This document shows, in pieces, positions 6,478-49,963 of a DNA stretch of 64,000 nucleotides. Numbering within the stretch: the stretch's first letter is position 1; every line of letters begins with the position of its first letter. The stretch lies in assembly GCF_053078305.1 (NCBI RefSeq), contig NZ_CP166879.1. One strand, written 5' to 3'. The notes beneath the pieces were generated by a model that was given only the letters and a program-made list of their open reading frames with translations, searched no databases and was not told the DNA's origin. The translations under genes were made by a program, and so were the position numbers.

Positions 6478-7617
6478 TTACCAGTTATGAATGTCGCTGG
6501 CTGTATCCGTCATGTAACGGACACCGCTAATAGTTGGCAGCAACTGATTGATCAGACGGTTCCAGCGGGAAACCGGGGCGGTGGTGACATACACCACGTC
6601 ATAAGGTTGCAGGCGGAATTCTGTCGCCATCACCAGCGACGTGGCATCGGACATATCCAGCTGGTAGATATTGGCAATCTTGCCGTTACGCCCGCCCTCG
6701 CCTTTCAGCGGACGAATGACAAAGATGCCGCTGGCGTTGGAGGTGGTCATGTCGATGCCTTCAGCATTGCCCAGGGCTTCAGTCAGGGTCATGCCGCTAA
6801 AGTCCATTTTCAGGGTGCTCTGTTTCTTCACTTCACCCATCACAAATACTTTCAGATCATCATTACGTGGCACGTAGAGAATATCGCCGGGGTAAAGCAG
6901 GCGATTCTGGTTGAGGTCGCCGTTTTGCATCAGCGCCTGCAAAGAAATGCGCTCTTCACGACCATTGTGTGTTAGCACCACGTTGCGCCAGTCAGCGGTG
7001 TCGGTCAGGCCACCTGCGGCGTTGATGGCATCGAGAATGGTCAGTGGTACGTTGGTAATCGCCTGTTGACCGGATTTATTCACCTGGCCGGAGATATAGG
7101 CTTTTTGCGAGCGGAAGGCGGCGATATTAACGTCCACCTGCGGGTCAGCGATGTACGTCGCTAAGCGCCCGGTAATATCACTGCGGATTTCAGCGAGCGT
7201 TTTCCCCACGACGTGAACCTTGCCGATATACGGGTAGAACATGGTGCCGTCAGGCTGTACCCAGTTGCCGGTGTCGCTGGAACTGCGGTACTGACCAGCT
7301 GGCGTGGTGAGTTCCGGGTGATCCCAGACGGTGACATTAAGAACGTCGCCCGGCCCGACGCGATACTGGTAATTCGCGATCTCGCTTTCCAGCGTCATAT
7401 TGGGGCGCGCTACATTCGGGCGTGGGCGTAATTGGTCAATCAGGCGCGGGGTCAGCGGATACACATTCACCATTTTGTCGAGATCGAAATCAGCGTCCTG
7501 CTGTTTGATGACGTCTTTGCCCATCGTCGACATATTGCTGCCCGGAAGTACTGTGCAACCGCTTATCAAGGTTACTGACACCAATAATGGCATCAATTTC
7601 ATTTTGGATTTCATCAT
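6478..7617 (-). CDS. wza: outer-membrane polysaccharide export lipoprotein
   Basis: 379 aa; signal peptide with lipobox LISGC; conserved position upstream of wzb/wzc. Confidence 0.9.
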
Positions 7618-7794
7618 TGTTTATTTATCACTTTGGCAGAGTAATTATCCTGTGCACTATTAATAGCAATGTCGCCATGCACATTTACCTTGCAGTTAAT
7701 TGAATAAAAATTTAACTGGCATCAGTCCTAAAAAAATTGATTTCATCCGCAGGCTATTGACAGAATAATTCAGACTGGCTTTCAGGCATCCAGA

Positions 7795-7806
7795 CACGCT
7801 ACCGCC
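7795..7806 (-). promoter_or_regulatory. ops element (RfaH-dependent antitermination site, part of JUMPstart) in wza leader
   Basis: minus-strand sequence GGCGGTAGCGTG matches ops consensus GGCGGTAGnnTG, ~180 bp upstream of wza start. Confidence 0.6.
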
Positions 7807-8274
7807 CCTGGCTTTTTAGCTACCAATACACTGATTTAGCTTAATTTTTAAAACCCTCTCAACATACAGTCGTTGATGAGAAAGGGTTATTGCGGAAATT
7901 AACTTCCGAATATAAGGTGACATTATGGTAATTGAATATTGGCTCTCCAATAATGCAGGAGGAAGTGTTACAGCTAACGGAATAGCAGGCAAGGTAACAA
8001 TTCGGCAATTGGCTATTTTTAAGAATTATATTAAGTGTCATTCAATATGGTTTTTAGGAGTTTCTTTAGGTTGACAATATTTAATATTGCGTCTCCACAT
8101 GCGATATTTCTTAAATAATGTTTTATTATTACCACTTTTAATTCAGGGATAATGTGAGGTTATTACCCTCAAATAATATGAGATAAATAGTGCTGCAACA
8201 TTGCATTTTTGCCCCGATTTATCCATGATCGAATTGTGACATTTGTCATACAACGAATAGGTTTTGTACTTACT

Positions 8275-8898
8275 ATGGAATGGATTGCCGATCCGTCTAT
8301 CTGGGCCGGGTTAATCACGCTGATTGTGATCGAACTGGTCCTCGGCATTGATAATCTGGTCTTTATTGCCATCCTCGCCGAAAAACTACCGCCGAAGCAG
8401 CGCGACCGCGCACGGGTTACCGGGCTGTTGCTGGCGATGTTAATGCGCCTGTTACTGCTGGCGTCAATCTCCTGGCTGGTCACCCTGACTCAACCGCTGT
8501 TCAGCTTCCGCTCGTTTACCTTTAGCGCCCGCGACTTAATCATGCTGTTTGGTGGTTTCTTCTTGTTGTTCAAAGCCACGATGGAGCTGAACGAACGGCT
8601 GGAAGGGAAAGACAGCAATAACCCCACGCAACGCAAAGGTGCGAAGTTCTGGGGGGTGGTGACACAAATTGTGGTACTGGACGCCATCTTCTCACTCGAC
8701 TCGGTGATTACAGCCGTCGGGATGGTCGACCATTTACTGGTCATGATGGCCGCCGTGGTTATCGCTATCAGCCTGATGTTGATGGCCAGCAAGCCGTTAA
8801 CGCAATTTGTTAACAGTCACCCGACCATCGTTATTCTCTGCTTAAGCTTCCTGTTGATGATTGGCTTTAGCCTGGTGGCAGAAGGTTTCGGCTTCGTG
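8275..8898 (+). pseudogene. yegH: yegH (TerC-family membrane protein) 5' fragment, interrupted by prophage left end
   Basis: ORF begins [18 protein letters not shown]... and carries only ~208 codons of a ~527-aa protein before reading into phage end and a stop at 8899-8901. Confidence 0.8.
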
Positions 8899-9075
8899 TA
8901 ACCAGGTGAATCATTTGATACCAACGAGGGTTTTAGTGAAAGGAGGTGAAATCACCTGTAAGATACTGAAATAAAACAGGTGATACCAATGCGAGCGCGG
9001 AAAGTCTATTTGATACCGATTGTGCAATAATTAGTCGTTTATTCTAAAATCGGCAACACTTTTGATACTACGGAT
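8897..9075 (+). repeat. prophage left end (attL-like) with transposase-binding-site repeats
   Basis: TTTGATACC at 8914 and 9009, TTTGATACT at 9061, GTGATACCA at 8979; spacing (about 17, 112, 164 bp from terminus) resembles Mu L1/L2/L3; terminus begins TGTA. Confidence 0.6.
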
Positions 9076-9168: not shown

Positions 9169-9729
9169 TTACGCACTAGCCTTTTTCTGGGTTACATTTA
9201 AATGATTAACCTTAGCTTCACATTCTTCATAAATCTCTCTTGCTTCAGAATCTGACATATCCTTTAACCTTAAAGCAAGCTCTCGGCGAAAACCGCTAAG
9301 TGCATGTAATTCCTGAATATTATCATCCAATAAGATCGTTAGAAAATCAGCCCCCTTTCTGCCAAGCAATCGGGCTAATTCTAGTTGCTCATCGGTGCTG
9401 AGAGAGGACAGAATTGCCGTAATTGTTTGATTTGCATTATCTAAATTACCTGCATCGACAGTTGAACAACATGGAGTGCTTGGGGTATTTTCATCAGAAC
9501 CAAAAGCTAACCAATTTAAACTCACGTGCTCTTTATTTGATATAAGGCAAGCCATTTTAAAAGAGGGTTCTGTGCCTTTGTGTATGTAGTTATTTAAGGT
9601 TGATACAGGAACCCCCCAATCCTTTGCTGCTGCCCTTACACTCCGCGTCCCGATCAGGCTTAGTAAGCGGGCTTTAAAACTTTCTTTTCCTGGTGCATCA
9701 AAAGAAAAATTTCCATTCTCTTCAATCAT
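9169..9729 (-). CDS. Mu c-type lysogeny repressor
   Basis: 186 aa, leftward gene next to left end, divergent from ner; N-terminal DNA-binding region; position identical to Mu Repc. Confidence 0.75.
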   Translation of the reverse strand: MIEENGNFSFDAPGKESFKARLLSLIGTRSVRAAAKDWGVPVSTLNNYIHKGTEPSFKMACLISNKEHVSLNWLAFGSDENTPSTPCCSTVDAGNLDNANQTITAILSSLSTDEQLELARLLGRKGADFLTILLDDNIQELHALSGFRRELALRLKDMSDSEAREIYEECEAKVNHLNVTQKKASA

Positions 9730-19441: not shown

Positions 19442-19867
19442 ATGGCAGAAACTCAGATGAGCATGTTTGGTGGTGACAGTGAGCAACTGCACGCCCTTAT
19501 CGACCGCCTTGATGACATCCCTGATGATGTTCTCAAAAAGAACTGGCCGCGGACCCTGTCAGAACTGGTTGAAGTCACCGGCGCAGAACTTCAGCGTCAG
19601 GGGATTGAGCCGGTACTGGCCGGTAAACTGGCACGCAAGGTGGCTGCGGCTCAGGCAGCCTATATGGGCGGACGGGGTTATTACCTGCCGGTCGGGGAAT
19701 CTCTCTTTGCCGAGCTGCGAAACAATGAGATATTTTCGCGCTGGGACCGGGGCGAGAAGATTGAATCCCTTCGCCGCCATTACCGGATGTCAGAAACCCA
19801 GATTTATACCGTCATACGTGAACAGCGCCGTCTGCATCTGGCAAGAACGCAACCGCCACTTTTCTGA
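19442..19867 (+). CDS. Mor/C-family transcriptional activator (late-gene activator)
   Basis: 141 aa; follows terminator and precedes lysis genes as Mu C; C-terminal HTH (RMSETQIYTVIREQRR). Confidence 0.7.
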   Translation: MAETQMSMFGGDSEQLHALIDRLDDIPDDVLKKNWPRTLSELVEVTGAELQRQGIEPVLAGKLARKVAAAQAAYMGGRGYYLPVGESLFAELRNNEIFSRWDRGEKIESLRRHYRMSETQIYTVIREQRRLHLARTQPPLF

Positions 19868-19938
19868 TATTCCGCAAAGCCTGCCGCCTCTCCTTCACCG
19901 TTACGCTGACTCAGAGAACATCATGAGACAGCGTAACA

Positions 19939-27663: not shown

Positions 27664-27838
27664 TTGTTTAAGGTATGCAAATGCATTACCTTACCCCCTT
27701 CAGGCGCGTGTCGTGATTTTCTAACCTGTATTTAACGGGCTTTAAAATCTGCGTGAAGCGCCTTTGCATTTTTCCCTGAAAATACTTCCTGAAATCCCGC
27801 AAAACCCGCCCTGAAAATTCCCGGCTTATGCTGCCGGT
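27664..27838 (+). promoter_or_regulatory. candidate C-dependent late promoter region upstream of protease/scaffold gene (PI-like)
   Basis: 175-bp gap in otherwise tightly packed late genes; three direct CCTGAAA(A)T repeats and a near-palindrome GGTATGCAAATGCATTACC; Mu has a late promoter at this position. Confidence 0.35.
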
Positions 27839-43177: not shown

Positions 43178-43738
43178 ATGCTGATTGGCTATATACGCGT
43201 ATCAACAAATGACCAGAACACCGGTTTACAAAGAAATGCGCTGGAATGTGCAGGATGTGAGCAGATTTTTGAAGACAAAATGAGTGGTAAAACGACACAG
43301 CGGCCGGGACTGAAGCGGGCACTGAAGAAACTAAAACCCGGTGACACACTGATGGTCTGGAAACTGGACAGGCTGGGGCGCAGTATGCGCCACCTTGTTG
43401 CGCTGACAGATGAATTACAGCAACAGGGGATAAATTTTCGTAGTCTTACTGACAACATTGATACGTCAACCCCCATGGGGCGCTTCTTTTTTCACATAAT
43501 GGGTGCGCTGGCAGAAATGGAGCGTGAATTAATTGTCGAACGGACACGGGCTGGTCTTGCAGCTGCCCGTGAAAGGGGACGAACCGGCGGCAGACCCCGT
43601 CGTCTCACGCAGGAACAATACGAGCAGGTCGGGCGTTTACTGGCCGGGGGTGTCAGTCGAAGACAGGTGGCACTTATTTTTGATATCGGCCTTTCAACCC
43701 TTTATCGTTATTATCCTGCGAGCGTTTCGGAAAAATAA
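43178..43738 (+). CDS. gin: Gin/Hin/Pin-family serine DNA invertase
   Basis: 186 aa; catalytic-Ser N-terminus MLIGYIRVSTNDQN; C-terminal HTH; adjacent to invertible segment. Confidence 0.9.
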   Translation: MLIGYIRVSTNDQNTGLQRNALECAGCEQIFEDKMSGKTTQRPGLKRALKKLKPGDTLMVWKLDRLGRSMRHLVALTDELQQQGINFRSLTDNIDTSTPMGRFFFHIMGALAEMERELIVERTRAGLAAARERGRTGGRPRRLTQEQYEQVGRLLAGGVSRRQVALIFDIGLSTLYRYYPASVSEK

Positions 43739-43828: not shown

Positions 43829-45886
43829 ATGAATATTATGACGTCCAAATGGGTTCAACTATCATCAATGCCCGGAAACTTTACCGTTAAAGTTTCCGGT
43901 GGTACAGCGGCATTTCTTGAGGCTCCCTTTCCTCCTGCTGAAACGAAAGGAGGAATGACATTTGCTGACTGTCTCATCAGTTTTAATACACAGGATTGCC
44001 TGTGGGTAAGGCCAGTATCCGGTGATCCGAACGTGGAAATTACCGGAGCGGGTATTGGTGCTGTCATTCCGTTAAGTGCTGATGTTGCCGGTACTACTGA
44101 ACCGTCAGACTGGGATAATGCAGAAACACATACCCGTCCGGCAGGAAATGAAACGGCTTCCAGCTCCCCTTCCTGGTATTACGTGATTGTTATAGCCGGC
44201 CAGTCCAATGCTTCATCTTATGGTGAAGGGTTGCCCCTTCCGGATTCTTATGATCGTCCTGATCCACGTATTATGCAGCTGGCACGCAGGAATACACAAA
44301 CCCCCGGAGGTATTCCCTGCAAATACAATGAAATCATTCCAGCAGATCACTGCCTTCATGATGTTCAGAATATGAGTCTGCTGAACCATCCAAAAGCAGA
44401 CCTGAAAAAAGGGCAGTATGGTTGTGTGGGGCAGGGACTTCATATTGCGAAAAAAGTATTACCGGTGATTCCTGCTGATGCCGGGATTTTACTGGTTCCC
44501 TGTGCCCGTGGCGGCTCTGCTTTTACAACCGGCGCAGTTGGCTCATTCGATCCGGCAAGTGGTGCAGCCGAGGCGTCACTACGCTGGGGAGTGGATACCC
44601 CACTGTATCAGGATCTTGTCAGTCGAACTAAAGCGGCACTTGAGGCGAATCCAAAGAATGTGCTGTTATCTGTCGTATGGATTCAGGGGGAAGGAGACCT
44701 TAAAGCGACCCCGGCCCAGCATGGTGCCCAGTTTACTGCGATGGTGAAAAAATTCCGTGCGGATCTTGGGGCTTTCTCCGGTCAGTGTATTGGTGGTTCA
44801 TCAGACAGTGTGCCGTGGTTATGTGGTGACACAACCTATGACTGGAAAGAGAAGAACCCGGCGGCATATGAAACCATTTATAGCGGATATAAAAACCGGG
44901 CTTCCGAGAACATTCACTTTGTTCCACTGATGCACGATGAGTTCGGTAATAAAACCGCGACCAACCTGCCGGAGCACGACCCGGATATCGCTTCTGCCGG
45001 GTATTATGGTGCGGAATCACGGGGAGATGGCAACTGGACAACAGCATCCAGGGCAACCCATTTTAGCTCCTGGGCGCGCCGTTTTCTGGTCTCAGATCGT
45101 TTTGCATCAGCAATTCTTAAATATGCAGGTCTGACCTCTGCATTTATTGCCGGTGTGGCCCCTGATGGTGAAACCCTGCCTCAGCCCGCGCCGGGTGGGA
45201 AACCGGAAGCGCCGACAGGTAGTCAGCCAGGAGGCAGTGAGTCCCCCCATCCGACATCCCCGTCACTCCGTACGCTGCTTTCACTTAAAGCATCAGCAGG
45301 AGAAGCCCCGGCTCAGGGCTGGAAAATTACAGATGGTACAATCCAGCTGACGGACGAAGGTAAAGCGTTGACCGTATCCAAACAAAGCGGAAAAACCTGG
45401 ACGCTTACCCATGGAACTGATGCAGCCGGTGAACTTCTGAAGCATGGTGGTCAGTTGACCTGTAAATTCCGTCTGTCAGGTGAAGTAAAAGAAGGCCAGT
45501 TTGCTCTGGGTATTTACCTCCACACCGATACGGTCCCGGAAGGTGTAACCATGAGTGGTACAGGCACACCGTTCCTGATGGCGTATTATCTCCAGACAAC
45601 AGGCGGCCAGTTAAATCTGATGCACCATAAAACAGGGGGGAATACGAAACTGGGATCATTTGGAGCCTACAATAACCAGTGGCATACACTTGTCCTGAAG
45701 TTTACGGCGGGAAGTGCCCAGGTAACGCCTGTGCTGGATGGCACTCCGGGCCAGGCATTCCAGATGGTGAAAGATGCACTTTCCCCTGCCAAAGATACGC
45801 TGACACTGACAGATGTCACCAAAGGGGCAACTTATGGCGTGTCTTTTGAGAGCGTTGTCCTTGAGGTTAATACCCCTGCGGCATAA
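43829..45886 (+). CDS. cargo protein with central SGNH / sialate-O-acetylesterase-like domain and C-terminal beta-sandwich domain
   Basis: 685 aa; GQSNASSYGE motif after a hydrophobic strand, typical of SASA/DUF303 esterases; Pro/Gly-rich linker PQPAPGGKPEAPTGSQPGGSESP; Mu has no gene here. Confidence 0.6.
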   Translation: MNIMTSKWVQLSSMPGNFTVKVSGGTAAFLEAPFPPAETKGGMTFADCLISFNTQDCLWVRPVSGDPNVEITGAGIGAVIPLSADVAGTTEPSDWDNAETHTRPAGNETASSSPSWYYVIVIAGQSNASSYGEGLPLPDSYDRPDPRIMQLARRNTQTPGGIPCKYNEIIPADHCLHDVQNMSLLNHPKADLKKGQYGCVGQGLHIAKKVLPVIPADAGILLVPCARGGSAFTTGAVGSFDPASGAAEASLRWGVDTPLYQDLVSRTKAALEANPKNVLLSVVWIQGEGDLKATPAQHGAQFTAMVKKFRADLGAFSGQCIGGSSDSVPWLCGDTTYDWKEKNPAAYETIYSGYKNRASENIHFVPLMHDEFGNKTATNLPEHDPDIASAGYYGAESRGDGNWTTASRATHFSSWARRFLVSDRFASAILKYAGLTSAFIAGVAPDGETLPQPAPGGKPEAPTGSQPGGSESPHPTSPSLRTLLSLKASAGEAPAQGWKITDGTIQLTDEGKALTVSKQSGKTWTLTHGTDAAGELLKHGGQLTCKFRLSGEVKEGQFALGIYLHTDTVPEGVTMSGTGTPFLMAYYLQTTGGQLNLMHHKTGGNTKLGSFGAYNNQWHTLVLKFTAGSAQVTPVLDGTPGQAFQMVKDALSPAKDTLTLTDVTKGATYGVSFESVVLEVNTPAA

Positions 45887-45943
45887 TCGTGACGGCCGGG
45901 AATTTATCCGGCTGTAACATCAGTTAATAAGAGTGAGGCTTAT

Positions 45944-46123
45944 ATGACATATATAAACGTCTGCCTGCTGTATTTCTGCACGGTGGTTTGTTGTCTGTTG
46001 CTTGTCAGCGGTGGTTATAAAATTATTCGCAATTATTTTCGAAATAAAATTGATGCAGCTGCCGAGGAAAAGATAAAAAGCGGTGCTGTAATGCCGCAGC
46101 CGAAAGACTCCGGTCAGATTTAA
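45944..46123 (+). CDS. small membrane protein (59 aa)
   Basis: ATG with GAGG Shine-Dalgarno 6 nt upstream; hydrophobic Cys-rich N-terminus CLLYFCTVVCCLLLVSGG; below the 60-aa ORF-track cutoff. Confidence 0.4.
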   Translation: MTYINVCLLYFCTVVCCLLLVSGGYKIIRNYFRNKIDAAAEEKIKSGAVMPQPKDSGQI

Positions 46124-46158
46124 TTTTTTGTGAACCAGAAAAGGAAAGGAGAATATTC

Positions 46159-46404
46159 ATGCCAGAGATTAAAGGCACGGTTACTGAAGAGCTTGTCAAA
46201 CAGGCACTTTATTCTGAAGAAGTGAACCGCGTGCTGAAGGCGCAGGTTCGCAAGGATTTTGAGGCACAAATCGACGCATATGTTGATGAAGTGCTGGCCC
46301 GAATGGTTGGTCGTTCTCCGGCTGAAAACAGCACGGAAAATGAGCCTCAACCCGTAGAGCAACCAGAGCCGGTTCAACCCGGAACTGACGGTACTATGAT
46401 GTAA
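46159..46404 (+). CDS. small acidic hypothetical protein
   Basis: 81 aa; AGGAG Shine-Dalgarno upstream; acidic Pro/Glu-rich C-terminus. Confidence 0.45.
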   Translation: MPEIKGTVTEELVKQALYSEEVNRVLKAQVRKDFEAQIDAYVDEVLARMVGRSPAENSTENEPQPVEQPEPVQPGTDGTMM

Positions 46405-46442
46405 CAATACCGACCGGCAGGTTTCCCTGCCGGGTGAATTTG

Positions 46443-46613
46443 TTAATGCACGTTTTGTGTATTTTCCCTCCGGGGAGAACAGGCAGGACATATCAGCATC
46501 CTGAAACAGGAAGCATTTTTTGGTTTGTATGTCTTGCCATTTTGAGATCGAGAACGGCGATAGATGAGCTGTAAGGGAGTCTTACAGGCAGGGCAAACAG
46601 GCTCTTTATCCAT
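46443..46613 (-). CDS. small zinc-ribbon protein (two CPAC motifs)
   Basis: 56 aa from internal Met (MDKEPVCPACKTPL...ICPACSPRR); AAGGAGA Shine-Dalgarno 8 nt upstream on minus strand. Confidence 0.45.
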   Translation of the reverse strand: MDKEPVCPACKTPLQLIYRRSRSQNGKTYKPKNASCFRMLICPACSPRRENTQNVH

Positions 46614-46721
46614 GATAAAGATCTCCTTTTTATGCATCTCTGCTTTACAGGAGACCGGGGAATATCATAGGATACGCCACGAGCTCGAAGTAAAGCATTG
46701 ATGCAAGTTTTTACAGATTGA

Positions 46722-46756
46722 CCCAGCATAGTTCCAGCTATGCTGGGTTTCCCTTT
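46722..46756 (+). terminator. rho-independent terminator-like hairpin (or palindromic operator)
   Basis: perfect 10-bp inverted repeat CCCAGCATAG-TTCCAG-CTATGCTGGG followed by TTTCCCTTTTA. Confidence 0.5.
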
Positions 46757-46757
46757 T

Positions 46758-47019
46758 ATGTAGTATCCTGTTGATTTGAAACATACTACATATACGCGCG
46801 ATCCTACCTTCACTGTATAAAAAGTCAATAAAATGATCATTTTATGATCGTTTTCACCACCTAACTCTTCGTTTCTTTAAGTAAATAATCACCGCCCTGA
46901 ATCATTGTTGATGACTTTTAAATCTATTTGTTGTATCAATTAAACAAATCGAATCGATCGTTTTTGTCGATCGATTGCATGAGAAAGGCATCAACAACAA
47001 AGCAGGAGGTTATGCGGCC
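46758..47019 (+). promoter_or_regulatory. com-mom control region with dyad symmetries and Dam GATC cluster
   Basis: ATGTAGTAT-N16-ATACTACAT dyad (46758-46791); palindrome AAATGATCATTT (46831-46842); GATC at 46800, 46835, 46846, 46956, 46969; two TCGATCG motifs 13 bp apart ~50-65 bp upstream of com. Confidence 0.5.
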
Positions 47020-47220
47020 ATGTATCGAAACATACGGTGCCGACACTGCAATAAGCTACTGGCACGGGCCAGTTTCAGTTATCTGGAAGTAAAATGTCCG
47101 CGCTGTAAAACCCTCAATCAAATCACATCTCCGAGCGCCACAGAGCACCCCACATACACAAGGAAATCCTGTCGTGGGGAACAGAAAGCAAGTCACATCC
47201 CGTATCATCAGCACGCCTGA
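47020..47220 (+). CDS. com: Com zinc-finger translational activator of mom
   Basis: 67 aa; [10 protein letters not shown]...[12 protein letters not shown] parallels Mu Com as recalled; AGGAGG Shine-Dalgarno upstream; overlaps mom start. Confidence 0.8.
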
Positions 47221-47911
47221 ACTTATTCGCTATAACGACAATATCGTTGGTTATGGCTCCCGTGAGTTGCGGGTTGAGACAATAAGTTGCTGGCTGGCCA
47301 GACTGGTTATCGTCAATAAACATTACAGCCACCGTTTCGTAAATAATTCCTACCTTCATCTGGGTATATTTTCAGAACGGGAACTTGTTGGCGTAATGCA
47401 ATGGGGTTACGCCCTTAACCCAAACAGTGGTGCACGCGTCGTAACGGGTACGCAGAACCGAGAATATATGGAGCTTAACCGGCTATGGATGCATGACTGT
47501 ATGCCGAGAAACTCCGAATCAAGGGCAATCAGTTACGCGCTCAAGCTAATCAGGCAGCTTTATCCGCAGGTACAGTGGGTTCAGTCGTTTGCAGATGAGC
47601 GTTGTGGCTGTCTTGGTGTCGTGTATCAGGCAAGCAATTTTGATTATGTAGGCAGCCATGAATCAACATTCTATGAACTTGATGGCGAGTGGTATCACGA
47701 GATTTGCAGGAGTGCCATTAAACGAGGCGGACAACGAGGTGAACATCTGAGGGCTAATATCGACAGAGCCAGTGTGCATAAGTTCCGACAGTTTCGTTAC
47801 ATCCGGTTTCTGAACAAGAGGGCCAGAAAACGCCTCAACACAAAGCTATTCAAAGTCCAGCCTTACCCAAAACCACAAACAGTTAAAACTGGTTTGAAAG
47901 AGAGTGAATGA
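47174..47911 (+). CDS. mom: Mom DNA-modification enzyme (adenine N6 modification, anti-restriction)
   Basis: 245 aa; last prophage gene, overlapped by com as in Mu; family assignment from position and com linkage. Confidence 0.7.
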
Positions 47912-47957
47912 GCGCTTAAAAACTCATTCTAAAACTCAAAAGAAAAGCGCCGATTTA

Positions 47958-48039
47958 GTATCAAATAAGTTGCGTATCGGCGTTTTTCAGCGGTATCAAA
48001 TGAAATGCAAATCGGTATCAAAAAAATCGCCGCGCTATA
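47958..48039 (+). repeat. prophage right end (attR-like) with three transposase-binding-site repeats
   Basis: AGTATCAAA (47958), GGTATCAAA (47992), GGTATCAAA (48014): inverted copies of the left-end motif, clustered like Mu R1-R3; terminus placed where ftnB reading frame diverges. Confidence 0.6.
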
Positions 48040-48177
48040 CTGGGCGCGAAGGAAAGTGGCGGTGCCGTTCAGACTCTGTTCAGAACACCAGTTACTCAGG
48101 TGAAGGTAGAGATTGGATGCGTAAAACTCGCGGTTCATTTGAGAGTTGAGTTTGAGAAGCATTCCAGCGGTTGCCAT
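48040..48177 (-). pseudogene. ftnB: ftnB (ferritin-like protein) 5' fragment, truncated by prophage right end
   Basis: minus-strand ORF begins [46 protein letters not shown] (ferritin-like N-terminus) then runs into phage end sequence. Confidence 0.7.
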
Positions 48178-48973
48178 ACCTAATATCCTTATATCCAGAA
48201 GTGGAGAGGTGCAAGATAAATCAAAACACCATAATTACTGTTTGCAGAATAATTCCTTTCTGCCGGTCCGAAATGTGATCGTGGAGTCAATTCTGACGAT
48301 GATCTGAAATAAGAATAACGTCTGAACGAGTATAAGAAAATGCTTAAATCATCAAGTTTATATATTTTTACATTTCATTGATGAAATCAATGTAACTGCA
48401 ATGAATTTTAATGATAGTGATTTTTGTATCTTGTTGATATTAATCGATGAATTTGAATTCATGATGAAGTGATGATTTTATAAAACGTTTTTTCATTTTT
48501 GCGAGATGGCTCTCATTATACGTGTTCTGTTAATTAATGAGCACAGTGATAATTAATGGCGAAATGAATGACGCGCATTTTCCACATCTTTGAGTTGTGG
48601 TTATTACACCATTTCAAAAACTCAACGCCAGGTAATGCGGCCTATTGACTGGTTAAAAAGAAGACATCCCGCATGGGTACCAAAGACAACAAGGATTTCC
48701 AGGCTAATCTTATGGATTAATCTGCTGTGCATTCGACAATTTGTCTGACAAATTGGCTTTCCCTTATGTCTTTTCCCGCTAAATTTATGCACGTTCTCAC
48801 TGTAATTCTGCGATGTGATATTGCTCTCCTATGGAGAATTAATTTCTCGCTAAAACTATGTCAACACAGTCACTTATCTTTTAGTTAAAAGGTAATGCTT
48901 TGTTTTCCGATTAATTTAACGAATGTCATTCGTTTTTGCCCTACACAAAACGACACTAAAGCTGGAGAGAACC

Positions 48974-49963
48974 ATGCACAAATTTACTAAAGCCCTGGCA
49001 GCCATTGGTCTGGCAGCCGTTATGTCACAATCCGCTATGGCGGAGAACCTGAAGCTCGGTTTCCTGGTGAAGCAACCGGAAGAGCCGTGGTTCCAGACCG
49101 AATGGAAGTTTGCCGATAAAGCTGGGAAGGATTTAGGGTTTGAAGTTATTAAGATTGCCGTGCCGGATGGCGAAAAAACATTGAACGCTATCGACAGCCT
49201 GGCTGCCAGTGGCGCGAAAGGTTTCGTTATTTGTACTCCGGACCCGAAACTCGGCTCTGCCATCGTGGCGAAAGCGCGTGGCTACGATATGAAAGTCATT
49301 GCCGTGGATGACCAGTTTGTTAACGCCAAAGGTAAGCCAATGGATACCGTTCCTCTGGTGATGATGGCGGCGACTAAAATTGGCGAACGTCAGGGCCAGG
49401 AACTGTATAAAGAGATGCAGAAACGTGGCTGGGATGTCAAAGAAAGCGCGGTGATGGCGATTACCTCCAACGAACTGGATACGGCTCGTCGCCGTACTAC
49501 GGGTTCTATGGATGCGCTGAAAGCTGCAGGATTCCCGGAAAAACAAATTTATCAGGTACCTACCAAATCTAACGACATCCCCGGGGCATTTGACGCTGCC
49601 AACTCAATGCTGGTTCAACATCCGGAAGTTAAACATTGGCTGATCGTCGGTATGAACGACAGCACCGTGCTGGGCGGCGTACGCGCGACGGAAGGTCAGG
49701 GCTTTAAAGCGGCCGATATCATCGGTATCGGTATTAACGGTGTGGATGCGGTGAGCGAACTGTCTAAGGCACAGGCAACCGGCTTCTACGGTTCCCTGTT
49801 GCCAAGCCCGGACGTACATGGTTATAAGTCCAGCGAAATGCTTTACAACTGGGTAGCAAAAGGTGTTGAACCGACCAAATTCACCGAAGTTACCGACGTG
49901 GTGCTGATCACGCGTGACAACTTTAAAGAAGAACTGGAGAAAAAAGGTTTAGGCGGTAAGTAA
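48974..49963 (+). CDS. araF: L-arabinose ABC transporter periplasmic binding protein
   Basis: 329 aa from MHKFTKALAAIGLAAVMSQSAMA signal peptide; followed by araG and araH. Confidence 0.9.
   Translation: MHKFTKALAAIGLAAVMSQSAMAENLKLGFLVKQPEEPWFQTEWKFADKAGKDLGFEVIKIAVPDGEKTLNAIDSLAASGAKGFVICTPDPKLGSAIVAKARGYDMKVIAVDDQFVNAKGKPMDTVPLVMMAATKIGERQGQELYKEMQKRGWDVKESAVMAITSNELDTARRRTTGSMDALKAAGFPEKQIYQVPTKSNDIPGAFDAANSMLVQHPEVKHWLIVGMNDSTVLGGVRATEGQGFKAADIIGIGINGVDAVSELSKAQATGFYGSLLPSPDVHGYKSSEMLYNWVAKGVEPTKFTEVTDVVLITRDNFKEELEKKGLGGK

Follow-up and report, generated by a model that had tools for sequence, protein, structure and literature searches.

The DNA upstream of com-mom in a Mu-like prophage of the Escherichia coli O157 Sp18 type, positions 46443 to 47019 of the window (the whole 64,000-nt stretch of contig NZ_CP166879.1 that was analysed), probably consists, judging from its sequence and that of its relatives, of two adjacent and separable units. 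One is a compact control module for com; the other is a minus-strand unit made of a promoter, an RNA leader and the gene of a small zinc-ribbon protein. An earlier note, made from the letters of the window alone, had taken the interval for a single enlarged com-mom control region bordered by a convergent zinc-ribbon gene. That gene is divergent from com and convergent only with the upstream DUF826 gene. Three of the five GATC sites, together with the AAAATGATCATTTT palindrome, the hairpin and the 10-bp dyad, had been ascribed to com control and are assigned here to the minus-strand promoter and leader. They are set apart from com control because the unit that holds them is missing or replaced in sibling prophages with a closely similar com module. 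Direct support for this explanation comes from homology and conservation, from covariation, from the coding signal and from predicted folds; the action of OxyR and Dam, the transcription start sites, an on/off switch and any function of the protein are what we infer in addition. The features concerned are as follows.

46443-46843, minus strand: minus-strand unit as a whole (promoter, leader of about 180 nt, zinc-ribbon gene)
46443-46613, minus strand: zinc-ribbon gene, 56 aa (MDKEPVCPACKTPLQLIYRRSRSQNGKTYKPKNASCFRMLICPACSPRRENTQNVH), ATG at 46613-46611, cysteines C7, C10, C42 and C45 invariant
46623-46628, minus strand: Shine-Dalgarno (SD) sequence AAGGAG, 9 nt before the zinc-ribbon ATG and part of AGGAGAUC
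46649-46656, minus strand: anti-SD sequence GGUCUCCU, able to pair with AGGAGAUC over 8 bp
46633-46705, minus strand: stem-loop SL3, arms UGCAUCAAUGCUUUAC and GUAAAGCAGAGAUGCA, apical hairpin with loop CCUAUG
46721-46748, minus strand: stem-loop SL2, ACCCAGCATAG-N6-CTATGCTGGGT, hypervariable with pairing preserved
46757-46792, minus strand: stem-loop SL1, TATGTAGTAT-N16-ATACTACATA, at the 5' end of the predicted transcript
46801-46828, minus strand: sigma-70-type promoter TTGACT-16-TAGGAT, -35 at 46828-46823 and -10 at 46806-46801
46830-46849: palindrome AAAATGATCATTTT with the GATC at 46835, plus the GATC at 46846, just upstream of the minus-strand -35
46850-46924: spacer between the two units, poorly conserved, holding the ATG (46905-46903) of an annotated 154-aa open reading frame (ORF)
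46925-47019, plus strand: com control module with a GATC dyad, OxyR-consensus-like matches and the SD sequence AGGAGG at 47004-47009
47020-47220, plus strand: com, encoding a zinc-ribbon translational activator of the Com family, 66 aa
47174-47911, plus strand: mom, its start overlapping the 3' end of com

The com module and its variable upstream genes

The earlier note was right about the Mu-type com-mom pair: com is followed by an overlapping mom, PHROG profiles match both products, and Com and Mom are 47% and 79% identical to those of Mu. Prophages with other upstream cargo share the com module and are about 93% identical to the window from 46925 on; the homology of sibling prophages to the window starts at 46925, at 46887 or near 46632-46636. 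The other cargo is an 86-aa minus-strand ORF in HH35 and a 66-aa plus-strand ORF in AST198, and in L021-type loci a 68-aa ORF lies behind the same leader as in the window. Since the upstream genes vary while the module stays, 46925-47019 is self-contained and everything to the left of 46925 is optional. The zinc-ribbon gene would, on these comparisons, be dispensable for the com module. The promoter and leader of the minus-strand unit precede the 68-aa ORF, which is unrelated to the zinc-ribbon gene, in L021, L032, L034 and L040, and this swapping of ORFs behind one leader favours a regulatory cassette over a protein domain.

The segment 46380-47060 is present in 232 of 5426 complete E. coli genomes, with O157, O111, O103 and O26 strains among the carriers. 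The coverage of the query is at least 80% in 202 of the 234 records, and about 14% of the E. coli genomes with the com module are without the cassette. P0032, a homologue of the zinc-ribbon protein, exposed a diverged relative of the whole region in L071 and L072, where its gene lies about 390 bp from com and is divergent from com-mom or com-Dcm. L103, L104, L106 and L109 are further relatives.

The minus-strand promoter

The predicted minus-strand promoter, with transcription starting at about 46793-46795, recurs as TTGACT-16-TAAGAT in L071, L103 and L104 and as TTGACG-16-TATAAT in L109, in each case with a diverged spacer. A GATC at 46800-46803 overlaps its -10 element and is lost in L014, L022 and L109. 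Upstream of the -35, the palindrome AAATGATCATTT (46831-46842) named in the earlier note is confirmed and extends to the 14-bp form AAAATGATCATTTT (46830-46843); L071 keeps a GATC 6-7 nt upstream of its -35 and loses both the palindrome and the 46846 site. A Pap-like Lrp/Dam switch built on two GATCGTTTT boxes 110 bp apart was considered and rejected, as the box at 46846 is not conserved in L071. At the other end of the unit, a hairpin (CCGGCAGG-TTTC-CCTGCCGG, 46414-46433) lies between the stop of the DUF826 gene (46404, plus strand) and that of the zinc-ribbon gene (46443, minus strand) and is likely a two-way terminator with weak T tracts; the zinc-ribbon gene of L071 has a canonical hairpin and then TTTTT at its end.

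The five GATC sites that the earlier note had counted within 300 bp are there, starting at 46800, 46835, 46846, 46956 and 46969, and two more lie to the left at 46546 and 46620. Dinucleotide shuffles give 1.3 sites per 300 bp, so that the density is about fourfold above expectation (P ~0.005). Four other places in the window also hold five GATC in 300 bp, and density by itself is for that reason modestly unusual and a weak argument. It is conservation that makes individual sites credible.

A structured leader RNA

The leader of about 180 nt folds into three stem-loops, SL1 to SL3 (z-score -5.7 for the window and -6.8 for L109), all of which are recovered by RNAalifold. SL1 is a dyad to which the earlier note had given 9-bp arms and a 16-bp spacer; the spacer stands, and the arms are of 10 bp (46757-46766 and 46783-46792). 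In L071, L103 and L109 its stem is retained while the loop has diverged. Pairing holds in 95% of cells, with compensatory changes at two pairs and A-U to G-U changes at several. The latter changes preserve pairing on the minus strand only, which favours a minus-strand RNA. In SL3, the basal stem of L071 has a U-A pair changed to C-G and has gained G-U pairs, and the apical stem of L109 reaches 10 bp through changes on both sides.

SL2 is the perfect hairpin with a T-tract of the earlier note, present as described save that the arms are of 11 rather than 10 bp (46721-46731 and 46738-46748, with a 6-nt loop); it is followed by TTTCCCTTTT. It exists in at least five alleles at one position, with flanks that are nearly identical. 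Pairing is 100% in the four perfect ones, six of nine pairs are changed on both sides and none of 500 shuffles does as well; fold energies of the hairpin range from -20 to -22 kcal/mol. When the alleles were compared for terminator character, a U run was seen directly after the stem in the window allele (GGGUUUCCCUUUU) and CUCCCUUUAU or CGCCCUUUAU in the others.

The SD-containing AGGAGAUC is invariant among lineages that carry the zinc-ribbon gene, and the anti-SD GGUCUCCU is invariant in the lineages compared, save for a single-base variant, GGCCUCCU, in alternative-cargo loci. The anti-SD has two predicted partners. In the minimum-energy fold of the window leader it pairs with GAGCUCG (about 46679-46686) inside SL3 and not with the SD. 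When the 5' half of SL3 was omitted and only the 3' half of the leader folded, a helix sequestering the SD formed in all three lineages examined; the same helix is part of the minimum-energy fold of the full L109 leader. We propose that zinc-ribbon translation would be on when the anti-SD pairs with the upstream sequence in SL3 and off when it pairs with the SD, and that an antisense RNA from the plus strand may modulate the choice. The ribosome-binding region of the gene also includes a GATC (46620-46623, in AAGGAGATC), which does not vary among zinc-ribbon-carrying lineages; SD/anti-SD pairing in the RNA, rather than Dam, is probably what constrains it.

An Rfam scan of 46000-48200 with E values up to 1 gave only two chance-level matches (E >0.1). 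Pattern scans for the conserved leader motif in viral, genome and metagenome DNA gave nothing beyond this prophage family and chance matches, and a megablast search of complete E. coli genomes with the L071-type region found no match. In literature searches on Sp18 small RNAs and on com regulation, no account of this locus turned up.

The zinc-ribbon gene

Across variants, the zinc-ribbon ORF has accumulated 7 synonymous and 4 non-synonymous changes, giving a ratio of non-synonymous to synonymous polymorphism (pN/pS) of 0.17 (P=0.004), against 1.45 and 0.76 for the other two frames over the same DNA. It looks like a real gene under purifying selection. P0032, 47% identical to the window protein, occupies the same position beside com in L071/L072 and L109 and keeps the four cysteines. 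Another ATG upstream (46637) is in frame in the window but not in L103, L106 and L109. The protein is basic, cysteine-rich and predicted to be all-beta, with four beta strands in an AlphaFold2 model (predicted local distance difference test score, pLDDT, 80).

Only four clusters of the protein came out when 1.84 billion representative proteins were searched exhaustively with HMMER. Comparison of the 56-aa zinc ribbon, the 154-aa ORF and the alternative cargo ORFs with Pfam, PHROGs, NCBIfam, PADLOC and PDB sequences gave nothing informative, and a Foldseek search of PDB with the AlphaFold2 model returned nothing below E=1. Kinship with Com was considered and rejected, as only the CPxC motif aligns. 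The gene is always found beside com, an adjacency that fits a functional link and fits equally an accessory-gene hotspot at the right end of the prophage.

The com control module

The GATC sites at 46956 and 46969 lie, as the earlier note had it, inside TCGATCG motifs just upstream of com. Together these form a perfect 9-bp inverted repeat, AATCGATCG (46952-46960), N7 and CGATCGATT (46968-46976), which places GATC at -64 and -51 from the com ATG, 13 bp apart. The sequence TCGATCG-N8-GATCGATT aligns with Dam sites 2 and 3 of Mu at the identical 13-bp spacing; Mu site 1 is missing from the window lineage, and one sister group of com loci has the full set of three. A survey of the upstream regions of 80 com loci distinguished three enterobacterial groups. 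In the group of the window, GATC stands at -64 and -51; in a second group, at -65 and -52, with a TATACT -10 beginning 7 nt after the last GATC; and in a third, at -82, -64 and -51 (18 and 13 bp apart, as in Mu), with TATCAT 7 nt beyond the last. Because a good -10 follows 7 nt downstream in the sister groups, the GATC sites are placed at the com core promoter, which in these phages the Dam sites abut. An ATGACt-17-TATCAA match at 46910-46938 was rejected as the main com promoter, since it is not conserved in the two other groups.

When the OxyR consensus ATAGnTnnnAnCTAT-N7-ATAGnTnnnAnCTAT was scored along the window, matches of 13-14 of 20 positions were obtained at starts 46904, 46922, 46926 and 46935, which are four of the six best in the 64 kb. 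On the same scale the known Mu site scores 13 and the third com group 15, and composition-matched shuffles reach 14 in 1% of trials (P=0.01).

Control by the late activator C fared differently. Only 47 nt lie between the last GATC and the com ATG, which leaves no room for a C site; no Mu-like CATAACCCC motif was found and no copy of the phage's own late-promoter box before com. Such a box could be recognised in the window, since the late promoters before lys (19864-19909) and an I-like gene (27789-27834) share yCTGAwATyCCGCAAArCCyGCC-N17-TTAyGCTG, a 22-nt element followed by a TTAyGCTG -10. It is probably the recognition box of the C homologue of this phage, which is 39% identical to Mu C, and it differs from the CATAACCCC-type box of Mu (Mu sequences for this comparison are from PMC4461284); a third or fourth copy was not found. 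Thus, of the Mu-like control that the earlier note had proposed for com, the Dam/OxyR part is carried by two GATC sites homologous to those of Mu and by a putative OxyR site, and C-dependence is without sequence support.

We propose that at unmethylated sites the OxyR protein of the host would bind and block RNA polymerase, that Dam methylation would lift this block as it does at Pmom of Mu, and that Com would then activate mom translation. The two GATC sites would act from within their 9-bp inverted repeat, in an OxyR-like site at or just upstream of the -35 region of com. By homology the module is a switch of the Dam/OxyR type, limited to about 95 bp and simpler than that of Mu.

In some siblings a DNA cytosine methyltransferase gene (PF00145) replaces mom on the 3' side of com (L006 2634-3840, L011 165-1217, L071 2398-3610 and L166/L167 885-1937). 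These prophages keep the same com upstream module, and a Com-type translational activator appears to be coupled in them to a different modification enzyme.

Alternative explanations

Several observations weigh against the two-unit reading. A promoter scan gave no more matches than shuffled sequence, so that both promoters draw their support from conservation. In the lineage of the window the com -10 is degenerate (TGAGAA or, further downstream, CATCAA), so that the position of the GATC sites relative to the com promoter rests on the sister groups. The OxyR matches depend on the consensus assumed for the scoring. On the minus strand, the GATC in the -10 is absent in some relatives, and the SD/anti-SD helix is without covariation support because its sequences are invariant. 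Perfect hairpins such as SL2 could be maintained by template-switch mutation in the absence of selection. Finally, a 135-aa ORF across the leader is open in lineages with SL2 alleles A and C, which is unlikely by chance in AT-rich DNA.

The last point belongs to the view that 46443-46905 (minus strand) is one protein-coding gene, of 154 aa in O157 and 135 aa elsewhere, that has suffered two 1-nt deletions here and whose coding sequence accounts for the dyads. RefSeq annotates this segment as a frameshifted pseudogene; the window differs by two single-base deletions from O157 strain PA20, in which the 154-aa hypothetical protein is intact. Residues 1-104 match PHROG 26524, and 135-aa versions occur on hundreds of contigs. 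However, over 16 distinct locus versions this frame (WP_115801860 / PHROG 26524) is 56, 82, 99, 106, 115, 135, 137, 153 or 154 aa long; it ends after 56 aa in allele-B lineages and after 82, 99 or 106 aa where the cargo or the hairpin differs, and the homologous regions of L071 and L109 hold no long ORF at all. The first 50 codons carry 18 non-synonymous and 8 synonymous changes, distributed evenly (7/8/11) over the codon positions, and the pN/pS of 0.58 compares with 0.75 and 0.67 in the other frames (P=0.15); the synonymous excess of the zinc-ribbon frame is absent from the overlapping 135-aa frame. The fusion to the zinc-ribbon frame in O157 hinges on one extra base, and a conserved promoter and covarying structures lie inside the ORF. 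We therefore consider a long gene quite unlikely and the annotation probably an artefact covering the promoter and RNA leader. A single enlarged com-mom operator and promoter at 46640-47019, with the zinc-ribbon protein as an additional regulator of mom, would explain why that gene is found only next to com and why GATC sites flank both promoters, and Mu mom, being toxic, is indeed controlled at many levels (PMC3378877). The intergenic distance of about 390-400 bp is also shared by group 1 and L071/L072, but in L109 the minus-strand promoter is only about 170 bp from com. Moreover, the cassette is lacking beside com in the minority of genomes mentioned above, siblings replace or delete it while keeping 46925-47019, the spacer at 46850-46924 is not conserved in L071, and an unrelated ORF can stand behind the same leader, all of which make one operator improbable. 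That the dyads act as DNA, being inverted repeats bound by protein, cruciforms or recombination sites rather than RNA, we regard as very improbable. An operator could well be placed where SL1 is, immediately after the predicted start; recombination breakpoints between cargo variants cluster at module edges, and template switching at quasi-palindromes could produce the paired changes of SL2. Yet the A-U to G-U changes preserve pairing on minus-strand RNA alone, the loop of SL1 changes freely while its stem is kept, and three hairpins in series with an anti-SD right before a ribosome-binding site are laid out as in a leader RNA.

A real though minor possibility is that the cassette is controlled by antisense RNA in the manner of type I toxin-antitoxin systems, with a plus-strand RNA of about 80 nt pairing with the leader and blocking translation or triggering cleavage. 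The features concerned are these:

46644-46673, plus strand: promoter-like TTTACA-18-TAGGAT, possible source of an antisense RNA that would span about 46680-46760 (about 80 nt) and stop at SL2
L005 2677-2810; L023, L025, L038 and L059; L106 and L109: loci with a tandem duplication

The hexamers of this plus-strand promoter are conserved in three lineages while its spacer and discriminator diverge. Downstream of it come the 26 nt with the highest conservation in the region, and after them the hairpin. The antisense RNA would be complementary to the SL3 strand that occupies the anti-SD. The body of the putative unit, about 80 bp comprising the conserved 26 nt and SL2, has been duplicated in tandem in two independent lineages, the copies bearing different hairpin alleles, and SL2, hypervariable yet always paired, resembles the specificity stem-loops of antisense RNAs. 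On the other hand, U residues right after the stem are found in allele A, that of the window, only (the others have CUCCCUUUAU); the G-U pairs of SL1 and SL3 favour the minus strand, whose RNA could also explain the conservation of the hexamers; no antitoxin-RNA family was matched in the Rfam scan of 46000-48200; and the protein, basic and cysteine-rich, is not a hydrophobic toxin. The two-unit reading, which we prefer, could be carried further: the leader and the orphan zinc-ribbon gene may form an undescribed riboregulated cassette, possibly antisense-controlled and occurring only beside com in Mu-like prophages, whose protein would join Com as a second small zinc-ribbon nucleic-acid binder that silences or times the toxic mom (or Dcm) in lysogens. 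This extension is speculative and, in our estimate, rather unlikely.

The prophage and its surroundings

The window contains a Mu-like prophage of the type named Sp18 in PA20, with com-mom at its right end. Other landmarks are the following.

9169-9729, minus strand: repressor
19442-19867: C-type late activator
from 19939: endolysin gene lys
43178-43738: Gin-like invertase
43829-46404: SASA/DUF6645 esterase, DUF1378 gene and DUF826 gene

The SASA/DUF6645 esterase is NanS-p-like, and its cassette, of a kind that we take to be typical of Shiga toxin (Stx)-converting lambdoid phages, sits between the Gin-like invertase and com. Repeated TTGATACC motifs are found at both prophage ends. The flanks derive from distinct chromosomal loci: wza and a truncated yegH on the left (6478-8901), and a truncated ftnB, in a fusion ORF, with araF on the right (47929-49963). 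On the K-12 map these loci are, we assume, about 150 kb apart, and the orientation in the window is inverted relative to it. The mismatch suggests an inversion, brought about by replicative transposition of the Mu type or by two copies of the prophage recombining. In L001 (LC727895.1) and in LC727881.1 the Mu-like phage is annotated inside Stx1a- and Stx2c-converting prophages, and such insertions imply that it transposes actively among genomes of Shiga toxin-producing E. coli.

Significance and comparison with known systems

The com module illustrates how the Dam/OxyR wiring of Mu is applied to a toxic DNA-modification gene in Mu-like prophages of pathogenic E. coli, in a more compact form whose Dam sites would lie at the core promoter and which shows no evident site for an activator. 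For annotation, a recurrent RefSeq call (hypothetical protein or frameshifted pseudogene) is corrected to what is more likely a promoter and an RNA leader. The leader itself is a conserved, covarying structured RNA without an Rfam family, upstream of an orphan zinc-ribbon gene, and the pair offers a compact system in which to study how translation of a prophage accessory gene is gated. These findings leave current understanding in place.

Dam/OxyR control is established for the mom operon of Mu (PMC3378877), with which the window shares the overlapping com and mom frames, their place at the far right of a transposable prophage, two GATC sites at 13-bp spacing with homologous flanks (TCGATCG ... 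GATCGATT) and an OxyR-consensus-like sequence. The two differ in that the distal GATC of Mu is missing, that the com ATG begins 47 nt after the last GATC versus 74 nt in Mu, and that a divergent gene cassette lies upstream of com where Mu has gin. In Mu, 42 bp containing the C-binding region separate the last GATC from the -10; given the shorter gap in the window, the C-binding site and T-tract spacer of Mu are without counterpart. The earlier note had seen here an elaborated version of Mu; the arrangement is instead more compact, without a Mu-type C site between the GATC sites and com.

In switches of the agn43 (flu) type, the DNA bound by OxyR contains GATC and is situated at the promoter or downstream of it. 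The window resembles them in having its GATC sites in an OxyR-like site that overlaps the core promoter, where bound OxyR would occlude RNA polymerase directly, and differs in having two GATC sites instead of three, in belonging to a phage late gene and in showing no evidence of phase variation.

The GATC in the minus-strand promoter has parallels in pIN of the IS10 transposase gene and in finP, which carry GATC in the -10 element; here it overlaps the 3' end of the -10 (TAGGATC). As the promoter outlasts the loss of this GATC in L014, L022 and L109, Dam control of the minus-strand promoter would be at most lineage-specific.

The minus-strand unit shares with the leaders of type I toxins (hok, zorO and tisB class) and with SD-sequestering 5' untranslated regions a small prophage-borne ORF behind a long structured 5' untranslated region, a 5'-terminal hairpin, an anti-SD with an alternative partner and a possible antisense promoter inside the leader. 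By contrast, its product is a basic four-cysteine zinc ribbon and not a membrane peptide, it is not known to be toxic, and there is no similarity in sequence or in Rfam. The com module is a variant of the known Mu-type system, and the leader RNA and its zinc-ribbon gene have not been described before.

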